A stretch of DNA of 54,505 nt from a virus. The position numbers were made by a program, and so were the translations under genes. This document shows positions 26,961-46,808 of the stretch, one piece after another. Each line of letters begins with the position of its first letter. The first letter of the stretch is position 1. Location of the stretch: IMG/VR virus record IMGVR_UViG_3300006169_000038, positions 1-54,505 of that record; one strand, written 5' to 3'. Below the pieces are notes generated by a model that saw only the letters and a list, made by a program, of their open reading frames with translations, did no database searches and was not told the origin of the DNA.

Positions 26961-28463
26961 TCATGAAATACGGATGAGGGTGGCGTATGGCGGGGCGTAG
27001 GTGATCGTCACCGTCGGCGCAAGGTGGGACCGTCCGCGCAATGGTGGCCGGGCATCGATGGTAATCCGCGCGCCCACCTCCAGGAGGAACCGCCGCAGCG
27101 CCGTGTCGAGTTCGGCCTGGGTCGCTGGATCGTTGGACGTGAGTGGGACCCACTGCGCCGCATCGCCCAGCACCGCCGCTGCCCGGTGGTACGTCGCGGG
27201 ATCGGGTGGAGCGGGCAGGGTGGCCAGTTCGGCATCGATCACGGCGACCTGGGCCGCTGCCTCACGATCGGCCTCCAGCCAGCGGTCGGCGTCGAGCCGG
27301 CCATCCCGGTAGAGTGCCAGGAGCCGATCCTGCCCATCCTGCGCCTTGCGCCGTTGCCGCTCCAGGGCCACCCGCCGACGCTGCGCCGTATCGCTCCCGG
27401 CCTGCGTCCGGGCGTGTGCGATTGCCGTTTCGGGCGTGGCTCTCCCGGCGAGGTCAGCGGCAAGCCGGACCCGCACAGCATCCTCGATCCAGTCCGCGCG
27501 GAAGGTTTGCTGGTGCGCCGGGTAAGTTTCCCCGTAGTTCGCCGTGCGTCCCTTCGCGCTGCATTGCCAGGAGCGCGGGTAGACGTTGCCCTTGGCGCCG
27601 CCCGGCGTGAGCGTATGCAGGTGCATCGGCAGGCCGCATCCGCCACAGGTGACCAGTTCTTCCAGCGGAGAACTGATCGTCTTTGCCTGTCGCGTGCGCT
27701 GTCGGGTGAGCCGGCGCTGGACAGCATCGAACACCGCCCGGTCGACCAGCGGCGGGTGCGCGTCCTCCATCTCCGACGTGTGCCCCAGATAGGCGCGGTT
27801 ATGCAGGATGCCGGCCACCGATCGCCACGACCAGGACCGGCCGCCGCGGAACTCAGCCAGCGCCGGGTCATGGCGGATCCAGCGCACAATCTCCATCACC
27901 GTCGCCCCACCGGCCACGCGATCGAAGACCTCGGCCACGAACGCCGCCGGCACCGGGTCCGGTACTAACCGCTGCGTCGGGCCGTCACGGACGTAGCCGA
28001 ACGGTACCCGGCCATGCCAGCCGCCCCGCCGCATCTTCTGGCGCACGGCCGCGCTGACATACTCGGCGAGGTCCGTGGAGTACCAGTCGGCGATCAGGGC
28101 CGACATCTGGACCATCCGCGTATCGGCGCTCTCGGTGGCACTCAGGAGCGCCACGCCCCGGTCCTGCAGCTCACCGTGCCCGTTGGCGAAGACGCGGACG
28201 CTGCGGGCGAACCGGCTGTACTTGTAGGTGATGACGGCGGCCACGTCGCGCCGGTCTCGGATGTCGGACAGCAGTTGCCGGTAGGCCGGCCGGTTATCGG
28301 TGCGGCCCGAAATGTCCTGATCCTCGTAGACATGCACGATCTCGTACCCATGGCCGGCGGCCCACCGTCGAATCTGGTCGGCCTGCATCGCGCAACTGAG
28401 CGAGTCGCCCTCGTCCTCGGCCTTGGTCTTCGATTGCCGGACGTAGCCGAACGCCGGCGTCAC
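26961..28463 (-). CDS. int: Large serine recombinase (integrase)
   Basis: AFGYVRQSKTK...SLSCAMQ...RTDNRPAYRQLL, followed by a recombinase domain and a zinc ribbon (CGGCGLPMH...WQC). The GTG 28463 start forms a GTGA overlap with the upstream ORF. The longest ORF starts at 28502. Confidence 0.9.
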   Translation of the reverse strand: MTPAFGYVRQSKTKAEDEGDSLSCAMQADQIRRWAAGHGYEIVHVYEDQDISGRTDNRPAYRQLLSDIRDRRDVAAVITYKYSRFARSVRVFANGHGELQDRGVALLSATESADTRMVQMSALIADWYSTDLAEYVSAAVRQKMRRGGWHGRVPFGYVRDGPTQRLVPDPVPAAFVAEVFDRVAGGATVMEIVRWIRHDPALAEFRGGRSWSWRSVAGILHNRAYLGHTSEMEDAHPPLVDRAVFDAVQRRLTRQRTRQAKTISSPLEELVTCGGCGLPMHLHTLTPGGAKGNVYPRSWQCSAKGRTANYGETYPAHQQTFRADWIEDAVRVRLAADLAGRATPETAIAHARTQAGSDTAQRRRVALERQRRKAQDGQDRLLALYRDGRLDADRWLEADREAAAQVAVIDAELATLPAPPDPATYHRAAAVLGDAAQWVPLTSNDPATQAELDTALRRFLLEVGARITIDARPPLRGRSHLAPTVTITYAPPYATLIRIS

Positions 28464-28705
28464 GCGATCTTCCGCTTTGCGTAGAGCGCCTGGACCAGGC
28501 ATTCCAGTTCCCCGTTCGTGATGTGGGCGAGCACGATGCGCATGGCCGCGTCATCGTCGGGATTCCGCATGATCAGGGTGCCGCGTGGGGTTGTTTCCAC
28601 GACACAGGTGTACGCGTCACTAATATTGCCGCTCTCGCCAAAATGCAAATAGATCCCGACCGGGGTACGAAACACTGCGTGCGAATCCATGCGGACAACC
28701 CTCAC
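28460..28705 (-). CDS. Hypothetical protein translationally coupled to the integrase
   Basis: 81 aa; GTGA overlap. Confidence 0.5.
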   Translation of the reverse strand: MRVVRMDSHAVFRTPVGIYLHFGESGNISDAYTCVVETTPRGTLIMRNPDDDAAMRIVLAHITNGELECLVQALYAKRKIA

Positions 28706-35150: not shown

Positions 35151-36127
35151 GTCACGCGGCCACCAAGTGGGCATGGGACCAGCTCGACCTTGCCGGCTCC
35201 GAAAAGCTGGTACTGGTTCGCCTTGCTGACCATGCCGAGCCCGACGGCACTTCGATACATCCCGGCATGGACTCGCTGATAGCCTATACCGGCTTGAGCG
35301 AACGGCAGATTCGCCGGTATATCCAGGGCTTCCTCGACCGTGGATTGATCGCTTACGAGTCGAACGAAAAGGGCGGCCGGGGCAAGATTCCGACGTTCTA
35401 CATCCCTGCCGTAAAGGCGGACGCCGACGACCGCCTTTCGGACCACAAAAGGCGGACACCCACGTCCCCCAAAAAATCGAAAAGGCGGACACCCACGTCA
35501 CAAAAGGCGGACACCCATGACCGGACTCTTAAGGAGGACCCGTCATTAACCGTCATTACACAAGTGGCCGACGAAAAATCCGAGCCGGTTCCGTCCGAGA
35601 AAAATAACCTCGTCCATGTAGCCGCTCCAGCACCCGAGAAACAGCCCAACCACAAGCGCCCGGAACATGGCCCCGCGCAGCGGATCATGGCCGCGTTTTG
35701 TGATGCCGTCGGCATCGACCGATTGCCGGACTACAAGATGGCCGGCGGGCAGGCGCAAAACCTGGTGAAGGCCGGCGTCACAGCCGAGGACATTCCCGAC
35801 ATGGTGGCGTGGTGCTTCGAGCAATCCTGGATGAACGGCGGCATCGACCTCGGGACGTTGTACCGGCACATGGTCAAGTGGCGCACCGATCGTGCGGGCC
35901 GTCAGCGGAAGCCGACTGGCCCGGCGGGTGTCGAGTTATTGCCCGGCGAGGTGGCGCACGACCTGAGCGGCGGCAAGTGGGAACTGGTGGGCGTCGATGG
36001 CTACAAGCGCCTGATCGACCCCCGGTACAACGGCGTGGTCTACGACGAGCGCACGGACCGGCTCGACCTGCCGGCGTTCTATGCCCGTGTCCGAGCGGCC
36101 GGGCCGAAGCAGGAGGAAGCAGCGTGA
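35147..36127 (+). CDS. Replication initiator with an N-terminal winged-helix domain; iterons lie inside the gene
   Basis: ATKWAWDQLDLAGSEKLVLVRLADHAEPDG...LSERQIRRYIQGFLDRGLI; located upstream of DnaB. Confidence 0.7.
   Translation: MSHAATKWAWDQLDLAGSEKLVLVRLADHAEPDGTSIHPGMDSLIAYTGLSERQIRRYIQGFLDRGLIAYESNEKGGRGKIPTFYIPAVKADADDRLSDHKRRTPTSPKKSKRRTPTSQKADTHDRTLKEDPSLTVITQVADEKSEPVPSEKNNLVHVAAPAPEKQPNHKRPEHGPAQRIMAAFCDAVGIDRLPDYKMAGGQAQNLVKAGVTAEDIPDMVAWCFEQSWMNGGIDLGTLYRHMVKWRTDRAGRQRKPTGPAGVELLPGEVAHDLSGGKWELVGVDGYKRLIDPRYNGVVYDERTDRLDLPAFYARVRAAGPKQEEAA
35413..35521 (+). repeat. Iterons; putative origin of replication
   Basis: AAAAGGCGGACACCCA(C/T)G(T/A)C at 35447, 35480 and 35502. A partial copy plus inverted copy lies at 35413-35438 (AAAGGCGG...CCGCCTTT), with an A-tract between. 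Confidence 0.7.
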
Positions 36128-37491
36128 GCATGAACGAGATGACCGCGGAAGCGGCCGAGAAGTCCCTGATCGGCGCGCTGGTCTGGGACCGGGACGCGAT
36201 CGCGTCCGTGGCCGAGCGCATCACCGTCGATGCGTTCCTGACCCCGAAATGGCGCGCGATCTATGCCGCGGTCGAGCGGTGCTGGGAGAAGCGCATCCCG
36301 CCCGACATCATGACCGTCCATGCGGAACTGGCGAATGATCCGCTGTACGCCGGCGACGACTGGCCGGCCGGCGCGCTCGACCTGACCGCGGCGATCCAGC
36401 ACGTCAACGATACCGGCTGGTTCACCCACGCCCCGCACTACGCCGACATGGTAGTGGGGTTCGCCCGGAAGCGGGCCCTGAGTGATGCCGGCGCGCGGAT
36501 CGTGCAGTTGGCGCACGACGGCGGTGATCTGGACGCCGGCGCGGCGATGCACGAGGTGCTGTCCGGCCTCGATCGGTTCGGCGCCACAGCCGAGCGGACC
36601 GGGCCACGCTCGTACGACGACCTGATCCCGGAGTATCAGGACCGGATCATGCGGATGCGGTCGGGCGAGATCCCGAACCGGGTGACGGCGACCGGGTTCC
36701 GGGGTGTTGATCGCAAGCTGGCCGGCGGGTTCTATCCCGGCGAACTGGTGATCCTTGCCGCCCGGCCTTCGATGGGCAAGACGGCCTACGCCCTCCAGAC
36801 CGCGCACAACGTCGCCAAGCGCGGCCAGGCAGTGATCGTGTTCAGCGCCGAAATGAGCAAGGAGGCGTTGCTCAAACGGGCGGTCTCCGAGCGCAACGGG
36901 CAGCCGGCCGACCGCAGTGAATACGACTTCACACCGCAGCAGTTCGACACGTTCCTGCAAACCCTGGAGGCGCTCCGGGCCCTCCCGGTCAGCATTGACG
37001 ACACGCCGGGCATCACCACCGCGCAAATGCAGGTCCGCATCCAGGCGGCACAACGCCGCGGCCCGGTAGGCCTCGTGGTGTTCGACTACATCGAGCTTGC
37101 CGGCGACCAGGTGAAAAGCGATTCCGAGGAACGCCGGATCGACGGCATCGTGAAGGCGCTGAAACGGATTGCCCGCGTCTGTGACGTGCCGGTGATGGCG
37201 CTCTGCCAACTCAATCGCCAGGTGGAAAGCCGCCACAACAAACGGCCGCAACTGGCTGACCTCCGCTTCTCGGGATCGCTCGAGCAGGACGCCGACAAGG
37301 TGCTGTTCCTGTACCGGCACGACTACTACGTGCAGATGCAATCGGCAACACCGGAACCCGGAACCGAAGGCACGGCGGAAGTGATCGTGGGGAAGCACCG
37401 GAACGGGGCGACCGGGCCGGTGGTGCTGCACTTCACACCGGAAACGATGAAGTTCCACGACATCGACATGACCCTGCGAGGTGCTGCATGA
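36124..37491 (+). CDS. dnaB: DnaB-family replicative helicase
   Basis: AEKSLIGALVWD...GELVILAARPSMGKTAYAL...DYIELAG...LCQLNRQVE. Confidence 0.9.
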   Translation: MSMNEMTAEAAEKSLIGALVWDRDAIASVAERITVDAFLTPKWRAIYAAVERCWEKRIPPDIMTVHAELANDPLYAGDDWPAGALDLTAAIQHVNDTGWFTHAPHYADMVVGFARKRALSDAGARIVQLAHDGGDLDAGAAMHEVLSGLDRFGATAERTGPRSYDDLIPEYQDRIMRMRSGEIPNRVTATGFRGVDRKLAGGFYPGELVILAARPSMGKTAYALQTAHNVAKRGQAVIVFSAEMSKEALLKRAVSERNGQPADRSEYDFTPQQFDTFLQTLEALRALPVSIDDTPGITTAQMQVRIQAAQRRGPVGLVVFDYIELAGDQVKSDSEERRIDGIVKALKRIARVCDVPVMALCQLNRQVESRHNKRPQLADLRFSGSLEQDADKVLFLYRHDYYVQMQSATPEPGTEGTAEVIVGKHRNGATGPVVLHFTPETMKFHDIDMTLRGAA

Positions 37492-37697
37492 GCCACAAGC
37501 GTCAGGCAGAGCGCAAGCACCTTCGCTGCCAAGCCATCGTCTCAACCGAGGTTTCCTACCGGCAGCAATGCAACAAGGTGGCTACGGGTCACGTCCGGCT
37601 ACCGGCCAAAGCGTTTGTGTGTGCCGAGCATCGACGGCTGTGGAAGGTCGCGCCTAGTGCGATGGCTTTTGCCCATGAAACGGAGCGTGCGGCATGA
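37488..37697 (+). CDS. Small Cys-containing protein
   Basis: 69 aa; ATGA overlap. Confidence 0.45.
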   Translation: MSHKRQAERKHLRCQAIVSTEVSYRQQCNKVATGHVRLPAKAFVCAEHRRLWKVAPSAMAFAHETERAA

Positions 37698-38059
37698 ACC
37701 CGTTTTCCGAGATCGAACTGGACCTGATCACCGGCTTCGCCCTCGTCATCGCCTACGGCATCACGATCTGGGGCGGCGTGATGTGCGCCGTGATCGTGCT
37801 CCGGCACGCGCTGGAATGGATCGACCGCCGGTTCCCCGATCCGGAGCCCGAGCCGACCCCGGTCACCGGCACGCGGCGGCGGGAAGCCGGGACCACAACC
37901 ACCACGGCGCGGGTGTCGCTCTACATCGTGCCACCCGCGCCGCACCGGCCGTGGGTGGAGGAGGCGGATTACGACCTGCTGGAGATCGTCGACCCGAAGC
38001 GCGAGGGGTTGCGCTGCCCGCAAGGCTTGCGGGTGATTCATCGGGGAGGGGCGAAGTGA
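37694..38059 (+). CDS. Small N-terminally membrane-anchored protein, paralogue A
   Basis: IELDLITGFALVIAYGITIWGGVMCAVIVL...PHRPWVEEADYDLLEIVDPKREGLRCPQGLRVIHRGGAK; paralogue of 39638..40009. Confidence 0.65.
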   Translation: MNPFSEIELDLITGFALVIAYGITIWGGVMCAVIVLRHALEWIDRRFPDPEPEPTPVTGTRRREAGTTTTTARVSLYIVPPAPHRPWVEEADYDLLEIVDPKREGLRCPQGLRVIHRGGAK

Positions 38060-39249
38060 TGATTACCCATCTCGATCTCTTCGCAGGCATCGGCGGCTTC
38101 TCCCGCGCCGTTCACTGGCTCGGCGGGACCACCGTGGGCTTCGTCGAATGGGATAGCTGGAATCGCCGGGTGTTGGCGAAGCACTGGCCGGAGGCACGCT
38201 TTCATGGGGACATCCGAACCTTCACAGCCGCCACTCTTCGAGACTGGGGAATCACCGCGCCCGGCGTCAGCCAGGCTGACGCCGGGCGCTCACGAGGACC
38301 GGGCGGAGAAGTACACGCCGGAGACGAGCTACCGGCATTTCACGGAGGGCAGGCAAGTCCATCTGTCACAGGTGGTGCGGGACGATCGCATGTTGCCGTT
38401 GACCTCATCACCGGGGGGTACCCCTGCCAGCCATTCTCACTCGCCGGGCAGCGACTGGGCGCGGCGGATGACCGCCATCTCTGGCCGGAGATGCGCCGGG
38501 TGGTCAACCTTGTCCGGCCCCGTTGGGTCCTGGCTGAAAACGTTGCTGGGCACATCACGATGGGCCTCGACACTGTTCTGGCTGAGCTGGAAGCGGACGG
38601 CTACGCCTGCGGGGCGGTCGTTGTACCGGCTTGTGCCGTCAACGCCCTCCACCGGCGCGACCGGGTTTGGATCATGGCCCACGCCGGACAAGGGGATGGC
38701 GGACGGTGGCCGAGTATTGCCGGAAGGGACGACGCCAACGGGCAAGACCCCGGACGGCCGGAAGGTGCAGGTGGGCCTGACGAACGCGGTTCGTTCGTGG
38801 CCGACGCCGAGGCACGAGGGGTTCGACGCGGGCGCGCACCGGGGAACGACGGACAGCCTGCACAGCGCGGTGAAGGCGTGGGCGACGCCATGCGCGACCG
38901 AAGCCCGGCAGGGCTGGCAGGATCGCACTCGGGGGAAGAAAGGCGTGCAGGAATCGCTGTCTACGCAGGTGGCGAAGCCGACACACGATACCGCGCCAAA
39001 CCTCAAACTCCATGGCCGCTGGACGCTTCAACTCATGGGCTTTCCGCCGGACTGGTGCGACGACCTGCCGCCGGACCCGCTGAGCCCGACCTGATCCGGG
39101 CCGCGTGGGCGGACGGATCATGGGAAGCCGGCCTGCCCCGCGTGGTGACCGAGGAACCGGAACGCCGCCAGAAGCTCCAGGCGGCCGGGAACGCGATCGT
39201 GCCCCTCGTCGCCTACGAAATCCTGCGCGTGATGATGGAGGTGGCGTGA
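38059..39249 (+). CDS. C5-cytosine DNA methyltransferase with coding signal split between two reading frames (possible pseudogene, recoded gene or local indel errors)
   Basis: In the open frame: DLFAGIGGF, GGYPCQPFS, ENV, HRRDRVWI, GNAIVP. In the +1 frame: WPTP modules and LMGFPPDWCD. GC3 switches between frames. Confidence 0.8.
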   Translation: MITHLDLFAGIGGFSRAVHWLGGTTVGFVEWDSWNRRVLAKHWPEARFHGDIRTFTAATLRDWGITAPGVSQADAGRSRGPGGEVHAGDELPAFHGGQASPSVTGGAGRSHVAVDLITGGYPCQPFSLAGQRLGAADDRHLWPEMRRVVNLVRPRWVLAENVAGHITMGLDTVLAELEADGYACGAVVVPACAVNALHRRDRVWIMAHAGQGDGGRWPSIAGRDDANGQDPGRPEGAGGPDERGSFVADAEARGVRRGRAPGNDGQPAQRGEGVGDAMRDRSPAGLAGSHSGEERRAGIAVYAGGEADTRYRAKPQTPWPLDASTHGLSAGLVRRPAAGPAEPDLIRAAWADGSWEAGLPRVVTEEPERRQKLQAAGNAIVPLVAYEILRVMMEVA

Positions 39250-39641
39250 TGGACCGCACCGCTTCCGCCCTCACCGCCACCTTCACCCGGATGCAGCCCG
39301 CCGAGGGCCGGCGCGCCTTGGAGCCGTGGGAAGCAGACTCACTGGAGGACGTGCTGGACGCCGCCGCCGCGTGGGACGCCGGCCAACTCGACCTCAACAC
39401 CGCCGCCAAGACCGGCGTGATCGAGTACGAGGGCCGGCCCTCCCCGAGATATAGCCGTTTCATCGCCCTGACGATCACGCCCCGCGACGATCCCCGCTGG
39501 CACGCGCTCGACCGGCTGATCTGCACGATCGTCGGCAAGCAAATGATCGTCACCACCCAGGGCGTCTACGACTCGGCCGATCTCCACATCCACGACCAGG
39601 CGCGGGCCTGGATCGCCAACCACGAAAGGGCGGCAGCATGA
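39249..39641 (+). CDS. Hypothetical protein
   Basis: 130 aa; its start overlaps the methyltransferase stop. Confidence 0.5.
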   Translation: MDRTASALTATFTRMQPAEGRRALEPWEADSLEDVLDAAAAWDAGQLDLNTAAKTGVIEYEGRPSPRYSRFIALTITPRDDPRWHALDRLICTIVGKQMIVTTQGVYDSADLHIHDQARAWIANHERAAA

Positions 39642-40009
39642 GCGCCATCGAACTGGACCTGATCACCGGATTCGCCCTCGTCGTCGCCTACCTGCTCACG
39701 TTCGGGACGGTGCTGTACGGCGCCGGCCTGCTCACCTGGCACGCGCTGGAGTGGATCGAGGCATGGCGGGAACGGCGGCGGATGGCCCGCCTGCCCGCGC
39801 CGACCCCGATCACCGTCACGCAGCGGCGGGCGGGTGGCACCGTCACGACCACGGCGCGGGTGCGCCACCTCGTGATCGTGCCCGAGTCGCCGCACCGGCC
39901 GTGGGTGGAGGAGGCGGACATGGACCTGCTGGAGGTGGTCGACCCGAAGCGCGAGGGGCTGCGCTGCCCGCAGGGGCTACGGGTGATTCACCGGGGAGGG
40001 GCGAAGTGA
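39638..40009 (+). CDS. Small N-terminally membrane-anchored protein, paralogue B
   Basis: IELDLITGFALVVAYLLTFGTVLYGAGLL...PHRPWVEEADMDLLEVVDPKREGLRCPQGLRVIHRGGAK. Confidence 0.65.
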   Translation: MSAIELDLITGFALVVAYLLTFGTVLYGAGLLTWHALEWIEAWRERRRMARLPAPTPITVTQRRAGGTVTTTARVRHLVIVPESPHRPWVEEADMDLLEVVDPKREGLRCPQGLRVIHRGGAK

Positions 40010-40446
40010 TGCTCCGCCTGCAACCCATCACCTACCCGGAGGCGTGCGCGTTCATCGCTGAGCATCATCGGCACCATCTCCCTCCACAGGGCTGGAAGTG
40101 GGGAATCGCGGTCAACGATGGCGCGAAGGTGGTCGGCGTGATCACCGTGGGCCGGCCAGTTGCTCGGATGCTCGATGACGGGTGGACGCTGGAAGTCACC
40201 CGATGCTGCACCGATGGCACGAAGAACGCCGCCTCGATGCTCTACGGAGCTGCATGGCGGGCGGCCAAGGCCCTCGGCTATCAGCGGATGATCACGTACA
40301 CGCTGGTGGAGGAACCAGGAACAACATTGCGAGCGGCTGGCTGGAAGGAACTGTACACGAGTGCGGGTGGCAGTTGGTCGCGACCATCACGCCCGGAAGT
40401 GGACAAGCATCCACTCGGCCAGAAGCGACTTTGGGAGGCGGCATGA
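40009..40446 (+). CDS. GNAT-fold-like phage protein; from memory it resembles the XF1762 / Mom-related acyltransferase-like family
   Basis: ACAFIAEHHRHHLPPQGWKWGIAV...VVGVITVGRPVARMLDDGWTLEVTRCCTDGTKNAASMLYGAAWRAAKALGYQRMITYT...TLRAAGW. Confidence 0.45.
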   Translation: MLRLQPITYPEACAFIAEHHRHHLPPQGWKWGIAVNDGAKVVGVITVGRPVARMLDDGWTLEVTRCCTDGTKNAASMLYGAAWRAAKALGYQRMITYTLVEEPGTTLRAAGWKELYTSAGGSWSRPSRPEVDKHPLGQKRLWEAA

Positions 40447-40748
40447 TGACCACGATCACGCACGTGCCGGATGCCTACGATTCTGACGCTTGGATTTGGG
40501 GTGTCGAACTCAAATGCAATGCCTGCAAAACACGGTGGAAGCTCTCGCGGTTTGACAAGCCGGCAAGCTTCTGGCGGTGGTTCACTGGCATCCTGCCGAA
40601 ACCGCGAGCCGAGGTGATGGGACCGGGCGTCATCACCACGTCTACCTACATCGTCAAGGATTACCCGGCTGAGTCCGGTATTTCCGGGACTCACCTCACG
40701 ACACGATGCCCGCACTGCGGTGCGTATCACCTGGAGCGAAAACCATGA
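40443..40748 (+). CDS. Hypothetical zinc-ribbon protein (lower-GC segment)
   Basis: CNACK...CPHCG. Confidence 0.5.
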   Translation: MMTTITHVPDAYDSDAWIWGVELKCNACKTRWKLSRFDKPASFWRWFTGILPKPRAEVMGPGVITTSTYIVKDYPAESGISGTHLTTRCPHCGAYHLERKP

Positions 40749-41098
40749 TCACTCAGGAAAGCAAAAGGTTCCACGAACTCTCGCAATATGGCAAGTACAA
40801 CGACGCTTACCGCGCGCAATGGCGAGAGCTCGCACGCGGTGGTGGTGAGCGACGCGTGTACTTCAAGCGTGGGCGCGTGATTTGGACGCCACGAGGCATC
40901 TTGCGACTGTTGCGTGGCAATGGGTGGAATGCGCGGTGGGCATCCAATCCCGGATTGAACCACCGGGCAGCGGTATACCGATCGTTTGGCCCGGTCATTA
41001 TCAGCCGAACAGCGACGCGATGGAGCGATGGCATGGGCGATGAGTCTGTGTTGTTTCCCAATGCTCCCGCCAACGGGAAGCGTGGGGTGCGGCTGTGA
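40745..41098 (+). CDS. Hypothetical protein (lower-GC segment)
   Basis: 117 aa; ATGA overlap. Confidence 0.5.
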   Translation: MITQESKRFHELSQYGKYNDAYRAQWRELARGGGERRVYFKRGRVIWTPRGILRLLRGNGWNARWASNPGLNHRAAVYRSFGPVIISRTATRWSDGMGDESVLFPNAPANGKRGVRL

Positions 41099-45577: not shown

Positions 45578-45659
45578 CTCCGAGCTGTAACGCCCTATCG
45601 CGCAATAGCCCGTGGTAGACTACGGACATGATGCCGCTGTACGGACACTGAGGCGCGCC

Positions 45660-46808
45660 ATGCCTGCGGATTACACACTCGATCCCCACAACGCGAACAA
45701 GGGCACCGTGCGCGGTGTCGGCATGGTCGAGCGGTCCCTGCAACAGTACGGCGCCGGCCGCTCCATCCTGGCCTCATCCGATGGCGTGATCCTGGCCGGC
45801 AACAAGACGTACGAGCGGGCGCAGGAACTCGGCATCCCGGTTCAGGAGATCGAGTCGGACGGGACCACCCTCTACGTCATCAAGCGCACCGACCTGCCGT
45901 ACGACGATCCCCGCGCCAAGGAACTCGCGATTGCCGACAACCGGGCATCGGAGACCGGGCTGGAGTGGGACGCCGATGTGTTGCAGGCGTTCCTCGATGA
46001 CGGGCTCGACCTGGAGCAGTTCTGGTTCCCGGAGGAACTGGAGGCGGTGCTGGCCGGTGACGATGCGCCCGTACCCGGCCAGACCGATCCCGACGAGGTG
46101 CCGGAGCCGCCGGCCGATCCGATCACTAAGCCCGGCGACCTGTGGCTGCTGGGAGAGCATCGGCTCCTGTGCGGGGATAGCACGGTCGTCACGGACGTGA
46201 ACCGGCTGATGGACGGGCGGAAGGCGGACATGGTGTTCACCGACCCGCCGTACAACGTTGGTTATGACTACGCCACCTATGACGACACCAAGACGCAGGC
46301 CGAGTACATCCAGTTCTTGCGCGATGCGATCCCGATGGACACCAAGGCAATCGTCAACAACGGCAACACCAAAATCCTCGAGATGATCGAGGCGTTCGGC
46401 AAGCCGTATCACGTCGGCATCTGGCTAAAGACCAACGCCATGTCACCATCGGCCATTTCGAGCTTTTCGGTATGGGAGCCGGTGTTCTTTTACGGTAAGT
46501 TCAAGCGCCGGCCCGGCAATGACCTGTTCGACTATCCGATCTCCAATCAACAGGATACCGGCGGCCACACCTGTCCCAAGCCGTTGCAGATGTGCGTAGA
46601 CATGATCCAGACGTTTGCTGATGGTGATCTTGTCTATGATCCATTCCTCGGCTCTGGATCGACGTTGATCGCTTGCCACCAAGCAGGACGGACCTGCTAC
46701 GGCATCGAGGTAGACCCGAAGTACTGCGATGTCATAGTCGCGAGGTACGAGGCGCACACCGGGCAGACCGCCACCCGCGAGGCACTCCACGACCAGGCGG
46801 CGGACTAG
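45660..46808 (+). CDS. ParB-like nuclease domain fused to an N6A/N4C DNA methyltransferase (beta class)
   Basis: ParB-like N-terminus; VFTDPPYNVGYDY (motif IV) precedes DPFLGSGSTLIACHQ (motif I). GAGG lies 6 nt before ATG 45660. The longest ORF starts at 45612. Confidence 0.85.
   Translation: MPADYTLDPHNANKGTVRGVGMVERSLQQYGAGRSILASSDGVILAGNKTYERAQELGIPVQEIESDGTTLYVIKRTDLPYDDPRAKELAIADNRASETGLEWDADVLQAFLDDGLDLEQFWFPEELEAVLAGDDAPVPGQTDPDEVPEPPADPITKPGDLWLLGEHRLLCGDSTVVTDVNRLMDGRKADMVFTDPPYNVGYDYATYDDTKTQAEYIQFLRDAIPMDTKAIVNNGNTKILEMIEAFGKPYHVGIWLKTNAMSPSAISSFSVWEPVFFYGKFKRRPGNDLFDYPISNQQDTGGHTCPKPLQMCVDMIQTFADGDLVYDPFLGSGSTLIACHQAGRTCYGIEVDPKYCDVIVARYEAHTGQTATREALHDQAAD

Follow-up and report, generated by a model that had tools for sequence, protein, structure and literature searches.

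A duplicated small gene beside variable DNA-acting genes in the early operon of a temperate phage

Phage mosaicism at gene boundaries, including "moron"-type cargo slots, is known from lambdoid phages and actinobacteriophages (the Hendrix/Hatfull literature), and free-standing HNH homing endonuclease genes sit inserted between phage genes. In the com-mom pair of phage Mu, the cytoplasmic zinc-finger protein Com activates translation and opens a hairpin in the mRNA. Mom of phage Mu hypermodifies DNA adenine, has a GNAT fold, and needs a helix-turn-helix (HTH)-like insertion (residues ~175–209) for momylation (PMC13219725). M.EcoHK31I is a C5 methyltransferase that occurs naturally as a heterodimer; its beta chain, which bears motif IX, is read from a second frame within the gene for the alpha chain (PMC2836561). 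Here, we analysed the 54,505-nucleotide (nt) stretch of IMG/VR record IMGVR_UViG_3300006169_000038 (hereafter the window), a temperate phage genome of 66% GC, in which two copies (A and B) of a small gene for a predicted membrane protein each overlap the start of a cargo gene resembling one of these systems: a C5 methyltransferase after copy A and an XF1762-family relative of Mom after copy B. The evidence tilts, if modestly, towards ordinary shuffling of phage genes around a variable slot with the small gene at its edge, where two modules of small gene plus cargo have become joined.

Comparison of the two copies revealed that they are each other's closest relatives. Copy A (37694..38059, plus strand, 121 amino acids [aa]) follows the DnaB helicase gene and a short open reading frame (ORF), as does its counterpart in a related phage (L081), and copy B (39638..40009, plus strand, 123 aa) follows orf130, an arrangement that recurs with orf131 in another phage (L082/L084). 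The two proteins show 67% amino acid identity (BLASTP, 82 of 123 residues, E 2e-52), a significant alignment that confirms the paralogy proposed in an earlier note made from the sequence alone, together with the common architecture described there of an N-terminal helix, a variable linker, and a conserved C-terminus. Repeat detection placed four collinear direct-repeat blocks over the whole small gene, the longest of which (D1; 37925..38061 and 39875..40011, both plus strand; 137 nt, 88% identity) contains the constrained C-terminal tail, a GGAGG Shine-Dalgarno sequence, and the TGATG junction. The final 121 nt of the copies differ at exactly 12 positions, for which the earlier note had estimated about 12, and both copies end in GGGGAGGGGCGAAGTGATG, the identical junction reported there, in which the stop overlaps the ATG of the next gene by 1 nt. 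The spacing of 1944 given in that note holds for the ORF starts, and the 3' repeats are 1950 nt apart. The longest identical runs between the copies are 31, 21, and 20 nt. Since the similarity begins at the start codon and ends just past TGATG, the duplicated unit is the gene itself, and the G+C content at third codon positions (GC3) of 0.89 and 0.93, typical of resident genes in a 66% GC genome, indicates that both copies are read as genes. Recombination from repeat to repeat, which would delete the block from the methyltransferase to orf130, is plausible.

Structure prediction with AlphaFold2 (AF2) for copy A gave a helix at residues 3–46 with a predicted local distance difference test (pLDDT) score of 90–94 and values below 50 elsewhere. 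The N-terminal flank of the helix has no Lys/Arg and two to three Asp/Glu, and one to five Lys/Arg follow the helix, so that one spanning helix and a charge bias together predict a single-pass (bitopic) membrane protein, for which the positive-inside rule suggests an N-out/C-in topology. No significant match to the small protein was found in Pfam (best E 0.24) or PHROGs (best E 0.009), and none at all among NCBIfam, PADLOC, and PDB sequences; of the structure and family checks proposed in the earlier note, modelling thus yielded a helix and profile searches yielded no family. The synonymous divergence (dS) between the copies is about 0.36 overall and evenly spread over the gene (N-terminus 0.31, linker 0.46, C-terminus 0.30), whereas the ratio of non-synonymous to synonymous rates (omega) is ~1 in the helix and linker and 0.22 in the last 40 codons (Fisher p 0.008). 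The C-terminus differs from the remainder of the gene in non-synonymous changes (p 1e-5) and not in synonymous ones (p 0.8). This combination of even dS and low C-terminal omega indicates that the conservation of the 3' end reflects selection on the peptide and not recent conversion or a DNA-level element; recent gene conversion of the 3' end was rejected because dS there is the same as elsewhere in the gene. An RNA element at the junction was likewise rejected, since its folds were no better than those of shuffled sequences (z-scores −0.72 to +1.28) and covariation gave no support (alifold covariation term +0.44, unfavourable). Rfam returned no match for the junction. The sequence pattern therefore marks the tail of ~40 residues as the constrained, putatively functional part of the small protein, and the terminal R-G-G codons also hold the GGAGG ribosome-binding site of the following gene. 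We infer that the protein, anchored in the membrane, is an early accessory factor acting via its tail, independently of the adjoining enzymes.

The family is very small. A word-indexed search of 5.8 billion proteins returned only the two copies in the window, and a full hidden Markov model scan of 1.8 billion cluster representatives added two more members, P0003 and P0004. Profile searching for further members added only a relic within an HNH gene, described below; scans of IMG/VR, JGI metagenome contigs, and GTDB genomes found no family members, and a degenerate DNA pattern for GL(R/H/Q)CxQG..(V/I)(V/I) retrieved only unrelated proteins from IMG/VR and the JGI contigs. The search for the junction followed by other cargo that the earlier note proposed thus gave no further case in IMG/VR, JGI contigs, or GTDB. 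P0003 lies in L081, a close relative of the window phage: the DnaB proteins are 83% identical (80% at the nucleotide level), and collinearity of the window with L081 stops at 37471. The gene order in L081 is DnaB, a 66-aa zinc-ribbon ORF, the small gene, an overlapping short C5 methyltransferase of 218 aa (PF00145, E 3e-5), and an HTH gene. This short methyltransferase-like protein (L081 2660–3316) retains PPCQGYS and ENV motifs, is much shorter than usual, and has no obvious target-recognition region. P0004 lies in another temperate phage (L082/L083/L084), where orf131, the small gene, a 129-nt gap, and an HNH nuclease gene follow one another in L082 and L084. L081 comes from sample ERZ27250276, and L082–L084 come from JGI samples 3300063066, 3300063015, and 3300063017. 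The orf131 product of L082 is 54% identical to that of orf130 in the window and is likewise encoded directly 5' of the small gene, and a blastn block at 39237–39688 of the window matches L084. Compared with the L081 and L082 copies, copies A and B are closest to one another (69%) and equally far from the L081 copy (53–55%) and from the L082 copy (39–41%). The next gene 3' of the small gene differs in all four cases (the EcoHK31I-like methyltransferase after copy A, the XF1762 gene after copy B, the short C5 methyltransferase in L081, and the HNH gene in L082/L084), across the only three phage lineages that have the small gene. Homologues adjoining enzyme genes in related phages, which the earlier note had predicted, are thus present in L081 and L082/L084.

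Analysis of composition and boundaries distinguishes the cargo from its surroundings. GC3 divides the resident genes (DnaB 0.86, copy A 0.89, orf130 0.89, and copy B 0.93) from the cargo genes (methyltransferase 0.69, XF1762 0.72, Zn101 0.70, and orf117 0.65). By blastn, the methyltransferase region is homologous to the temperate phage L088 and to L089, a prophage on a contig of 490 kb, over 38062–39238 only, i.e. the gene itself, and both carry the methyltransferase in other contexts without the small gene. None of 80 viral loci with an XF1762 gene has a homologue of the small gene upstream. Neither enzyme therefore needs the small gene, and the co-regulation with enzyme cargo suggested in the earlier note is weakened, as both enzymes occur without it. 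The possibility that XF1762 genes generally have a small membrane ORF as their partner was also rejected, as only two to three of the 80 loci have a hydrophobic small ORF upstream, none of them homologous. From the replication initiator (35147) to DUF4326 (42478), all gene junctions overlap (ATGA, GTGA, or TGATG), and no promoter-like or terminator-like sites were found on the plus strand in this interval. Translational coupling is thus the general style of the operon, and the coupling described in the earlier note is not particular to the two small-gene pairs.

These observations are consistent with a proposal in which the small gene is a lineage-restricted early-operon gene at the upstream edge of a hypervariable slot in a small clade of temperate high-GC phages. 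At this slot, recombination would exchange single DNA-acting genes gene-precisely, namely an EcoHK31I-like methyltransferase, an XF1762/Mom-like GNAT protein, a short C5 methyltransferase, and an HNH nuclease. The two copies in the window would then stem from the tandem joining of two modules, one (DnaB-orf69-A-methyltransferase) resembling L081 and the other (orf130-B-XF1762) having its orf130-B part in common with L082/L084, either by recombination with a close relative or by duplication followed by cargo replacement. The overlapping stop and start codons and the embedded Shine-Dalgarno sequence would ensure that every cargo gene is expressed as part of the long early operon with its overlapping genes. 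As in moron-type mosaicism, conserved genes have single genes of foreign composition joined to them gene-precisely, related phages carry different genes in the same slot, and the homology blocks stop at start and stop codons. The locus departs from that model in two respects: the gene bordering the slot is duplicated, with one copy per cargo gene, and in another lineage a 22-residue relic of the bordering gene is fused to a third cargo gene. On the whole, the evidence favours mosaic recombination together with selection for intact overlapping junctions over a dedicated swapping device. The reusable junction module envisaged in the earlier note therefore survives in part: the 3' end of the small gene does recur beside variable cargo in three lineages, including the HNH relic, whereas its role as a dedicated device for swapping is not favoured.

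Several points weigh against gene shuffling as the whole account. Three of the four family members lie directly 5' of a DNA-modification-type enzyme, and these enzymes belong to three unrelated families, which exceeds the expectation for random neighbours; the adjacency could be a functional link. The HNH relic may imply that insertions are targeted to the 3' end and not merely tolerated there. The order of events is tentative, as the family has only four members. A GC3 near 0.9 compresses dS, which makes the exclusion of recent gene conversion a soft one, and AF2 modelled the C-terminal tail with low confidence.

Analysis of the HNH gene in L082/L084 brings a different explanation into view. 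The final 22 residues of its product (DPRATGLHCPQGHRVIRERGGR) match the tail of the small protein (DPKREGLRCPQGLRVIHRGGAK), and this segment (L082 1977–2045, equivalent to L084 10457–10525) was found by a motif model built without the HNH sequence, scoring 22 bits (E 8.6e-5 among 18,322 six-frame pieces; best noise 11.7 bits). Phage HNH homologues align only to residues 2–116. The C-terminal 22 residues have the look of a relic derived from the C-terminal end of the small protein. The HNH gene has the intact small gene before it and ends in this relic, which overlaps the start of the next gene; the 3' end of the small gene thus recurs as a junction beside variable cargo. At the DNA level, the core of the relic is nearer to the window copies than to L082's own small gene, and the 129-nt gap before the HNH gene is lower in GC and holds an apparent TGnTATGAT extended −10 box, recognised by eye without a scan. 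No other detectable piece of the small gene was found around the HNH gene. Like free-standing HNH homing genes, it has an apparent promoter of its own (again judged by eye) and is inserted, directly after the small gene. The difference is that its frame ends in the C-terminal motif of its neighbour, and it may be regarded as a candidate homing gene only.

These features would fit a process in which the 3' end of the small gene serves as an insertion or homing target, such that mobile single-gene cassettes, for example the HNH gene, enter its last ~70–140 nt, duplicate the segment, and keep the next junction; the second copy in the window would reflect such an event on a larger scale, and the 137-nt direct repeats on both sides of the window's cargo block agree with it. 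The relic is a single example (n=1), however, and the window duplicates the whole gene and not its 3' end alone, with copies that are old (dS about 0.36). Nor was a further copy of the tail motif found in the window, in 145 loci, or in the pattern scans of IMG/VR and JGI contigs, and no recombinase or cleavage site was identified. We regard targeted insertion as unlikely. Equally tentative, and in our view improbable, is the related idea that the last ~70–140 nt act as a portable docking site, with cassettes carrying or regenerating the 3' end so that each cargo inherits a ready ribosome-binding site and stop/start junction. The L082/L084 HNH nuclease itself may recognise the conserved 3' sequence as its homing site.

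The position of the small gene before DNA-modification-type genes raises a further explanation, in which the small protein serves the downstream enzyme as a dedicated partner or regulator, an arrangement functionally analogous to Mu com-mom. It could throttle or time enzyme translation through coupling, or tether the enzyme to the membrane. In this respect, three of the four members are followed by overlapping genes of this type from the three unrelated families noted above, the Shine-Dalgarno sequence of the enzyme gene lies within the last codons of the small gene, and each enzyme in the window retains its own copy. As in Mu, the small upstream ORF in the window overlaps the start of a Mom-related GNAT gene. 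The comparison fails on the small protein, which in the window is predicted to be membrane-anchored, shares no sequence similarity with Com, and has one conserved Cys where a Com-like activator has a Cys4 zinc finger; there is also no supported occluding hairpin (z about −0.7 to +1.3, with unfavourable covariation). Moreover, the same methyltransferase and XF1762 genes are found elsewhere without the small gene, the L082/L084 neighbour is an HNH gene beyond a 129-nt gap, and the overlap of stop and start codons is generic in the operon. Taken together, a dedicated partnership seems to us distinctly doubtful.

The downstream protein was compared with Mom as well. The XF1762-family protein (40009..40446, plus strand, 145 aa) is short, of GNAT type, and related to phage Mu Mom; it belongs to NF045478 with a score of 208 bits against a cut-off of 50 (E 4.6e-62; residues 4–143 on profile positions 2–143 of 143) and matches phrog_1384, "Mom-like" (E 8.6e-36). 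It falls below the cut-off of the Pfam family Mom (PF25680; 22.0 bits against 27.1), with profile positions 2–127 of 202 matched. Since the window protein, unlike Mom, has only 145 residues and the match ends at position 127 of 202, there is no room for the HTH-like insertion of Mom. Its role as a modification enzyme is thus a reading by relationship: the earlier note's GNAT-type assignment stands, now within the XF1762 family, and the modification activity attached to it remains putative. The protein is up to 80% identical to the products of genes in viral contigs of 49–59% GC, and this identity to genes of ~50% GC contigs together with its low GC3 suggests a fairly recent import.

Finally, a tandem arrangement produced by mis-assembly of two strain variants through the shared 3' segment is very improbable: the window is probably a metagenomic contig without a close relative among isolated phages, and the junction from the methyltransferase to orf130 is seen only there, but the longest run shared by the copies is 31 nt, a length that final assembly k-mers usually exceed, the copies differ along their entire length, both flanking adjacencies are seen independently in L081 and L084, and the junctions are clean overlapping stops and starts, as in the rest of the operon.

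The gene after copy A (38059..39249, plus strand) encodes the large, alpha-like chain of a C5 cytosine DNA methyltransferase (396 aa), as the earlier note had recognised, with matches to PF00145 (E 6e-30; 105 bits against a cut-off of 22) and phrog_363 (E 1e-65). Its frame (frame 0) encodes motifs I (FAGIGG), IV (PCQPFS), VI (ENV), VIII (RRDR), and X (GNAIVP), with motifs I–VIII at 38059–38682 and motif X at 39097–39246, and methyltransferase profiles match in these two parts only; the frame-0 stretches 38221–38394 and 38683–39090 look non-native. A nested ORF (38204..39094, plus strand) in the +1 frame of the gene encodes a beta-like chain of 296 aa, with GGAGG 9 nt before its ATG, WPTP repeats, and a C-terminal LMGFPPDW that resembles motif IX. 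GC3 favours the +1 frame at 38200–38400 and 38650–39090, and both frames are high at 38400–38650. The nested product matches phrog_1008 (E 5e-17) and has 151 homologues, mostly of 250–330 aa, with up to 58% identity over ~99% of the length; no match was found in Pfam, and its AF2 model is poor (pLDDT 58). The +1 frame is open and conserved in C72C1 (52% GC), Paenibacillus phage Lily (45% GC), Gordonia phage Gudmit, L021, and L049, and the same nested position is also kept in L088 and L089; in Lily the ORF is annotated "g62 internal gene". One and the same stretch of C72C1 DNA encodes the +1 motif EWLMGYPEGWTD and the frame-0 motif GIPRRVDRLKGLGNAIVP, which therefore cannot share one polypeptide. 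Frameshift errors in the methyltransferase gene were considered and rejected in favour of a nested gene, as both frames are open and conserved in lower-GC phages.

As a comparison of architecture only, this arrangement resembles M.EcoHK31I: a second polypeptide is encoded wholly within the alpha gene in another frame, with motifs I–VIII and X in one frame and a conserved +1 ORF ending in a motif-IX-like sequence. It differs in that the nested ORF is much longer (296 aa) and contains WPTP repeats, and the alpha frame seems to be without a recognisable target-recognition domain. The nested C-terminus (...LQLMGFPPDW) aligns weakly (E 0.13) with the segment directly before motif X (...EWMMMLPAGW) in the single-chain Gudmit gp58. 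This Gudmit protein (L085 2290–3675), annotated as a "DNA methylase" of 461 aa, reads across ~90 low-complexity residues, where the +1 frame encodes three well-formed LLPTP repeats, and the deposited annotation thus probably merges or misses the nested ORF. A 309-aa protein (P0057) from a JGI contig of 1917 bp joins a methyltransferase N-terminus with motif I straight to +1-frame sequence (…PASHSHSPGSDWARRMTA…) and is either a natural frameshift variant or the product of a sequencing indel. The nested ORF matters for annotation: gene callers choose one frame or the other, and a widespread type of phage methyltransferase is in consequence routinely mis-annotated.

The remaining genes place the locus within the phage. 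The DnaB helicase gene (36124..37491, plus strand) is the conserved anchor 5' of the variable slot, and orf69 (37488..37697, plus strand, GC3 0.66) lies between it and copy A, in the position of the L081 zinc-ribbon ORF, to which it is not similar. The conserved upstream partner of copy B, orf130 (39249..39641, plus strand), has no family match in Pfam, PHROGs, or NCBIfam. The low-GC3 cargo block after copy B (XF1762, Zn101, and orf117) spans 40009–41098 and includes the 101-aa zinc-ribbon ORF Zn101 (40443..40748, plus strand), which has weak zinc-ribbon Pfam matches. The replication module consists of an HTH_36 initiator and DnaB, and a terminase is also encoded in the window. Within the initiator gene, four direct repeats of ~24 nt (CACAAAAGGCGGACACCCACGTCC-like) occur at 35409–35522 with spacings of 35, 33, and 22 nt; by their sequence pattern, they look like iterons, i.e. 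a candidate replication origin embedded in the initiator gene. The phage is temperate and has a large serine integrase gene (26961–28502, minus strand). Comparison with 50,697 deposited phage genomes found no close relative, and searches with DnaB and orf130 likewise gave no close relatives. A further DNA-modification gene, for an N6_N4 methyltransferase (45612–46808), is the third gene of this type in the window phage.

The small protein is a true orphan: its family numbers four among ~15 billion predicted proteins. Targeted insertion, if shown, would provide a mechanistic explanation for gene-precise mosaic joints and would be more interesting than gene shuffling at a variable slot. If gene shuffling holds, the locus would offer a clean small example of temperate phages exchanging anti-restriction and DNA-modification genes singly at a fixed slot, and would show that the gene bordering such a slot can become duplicated during cargo exchange.

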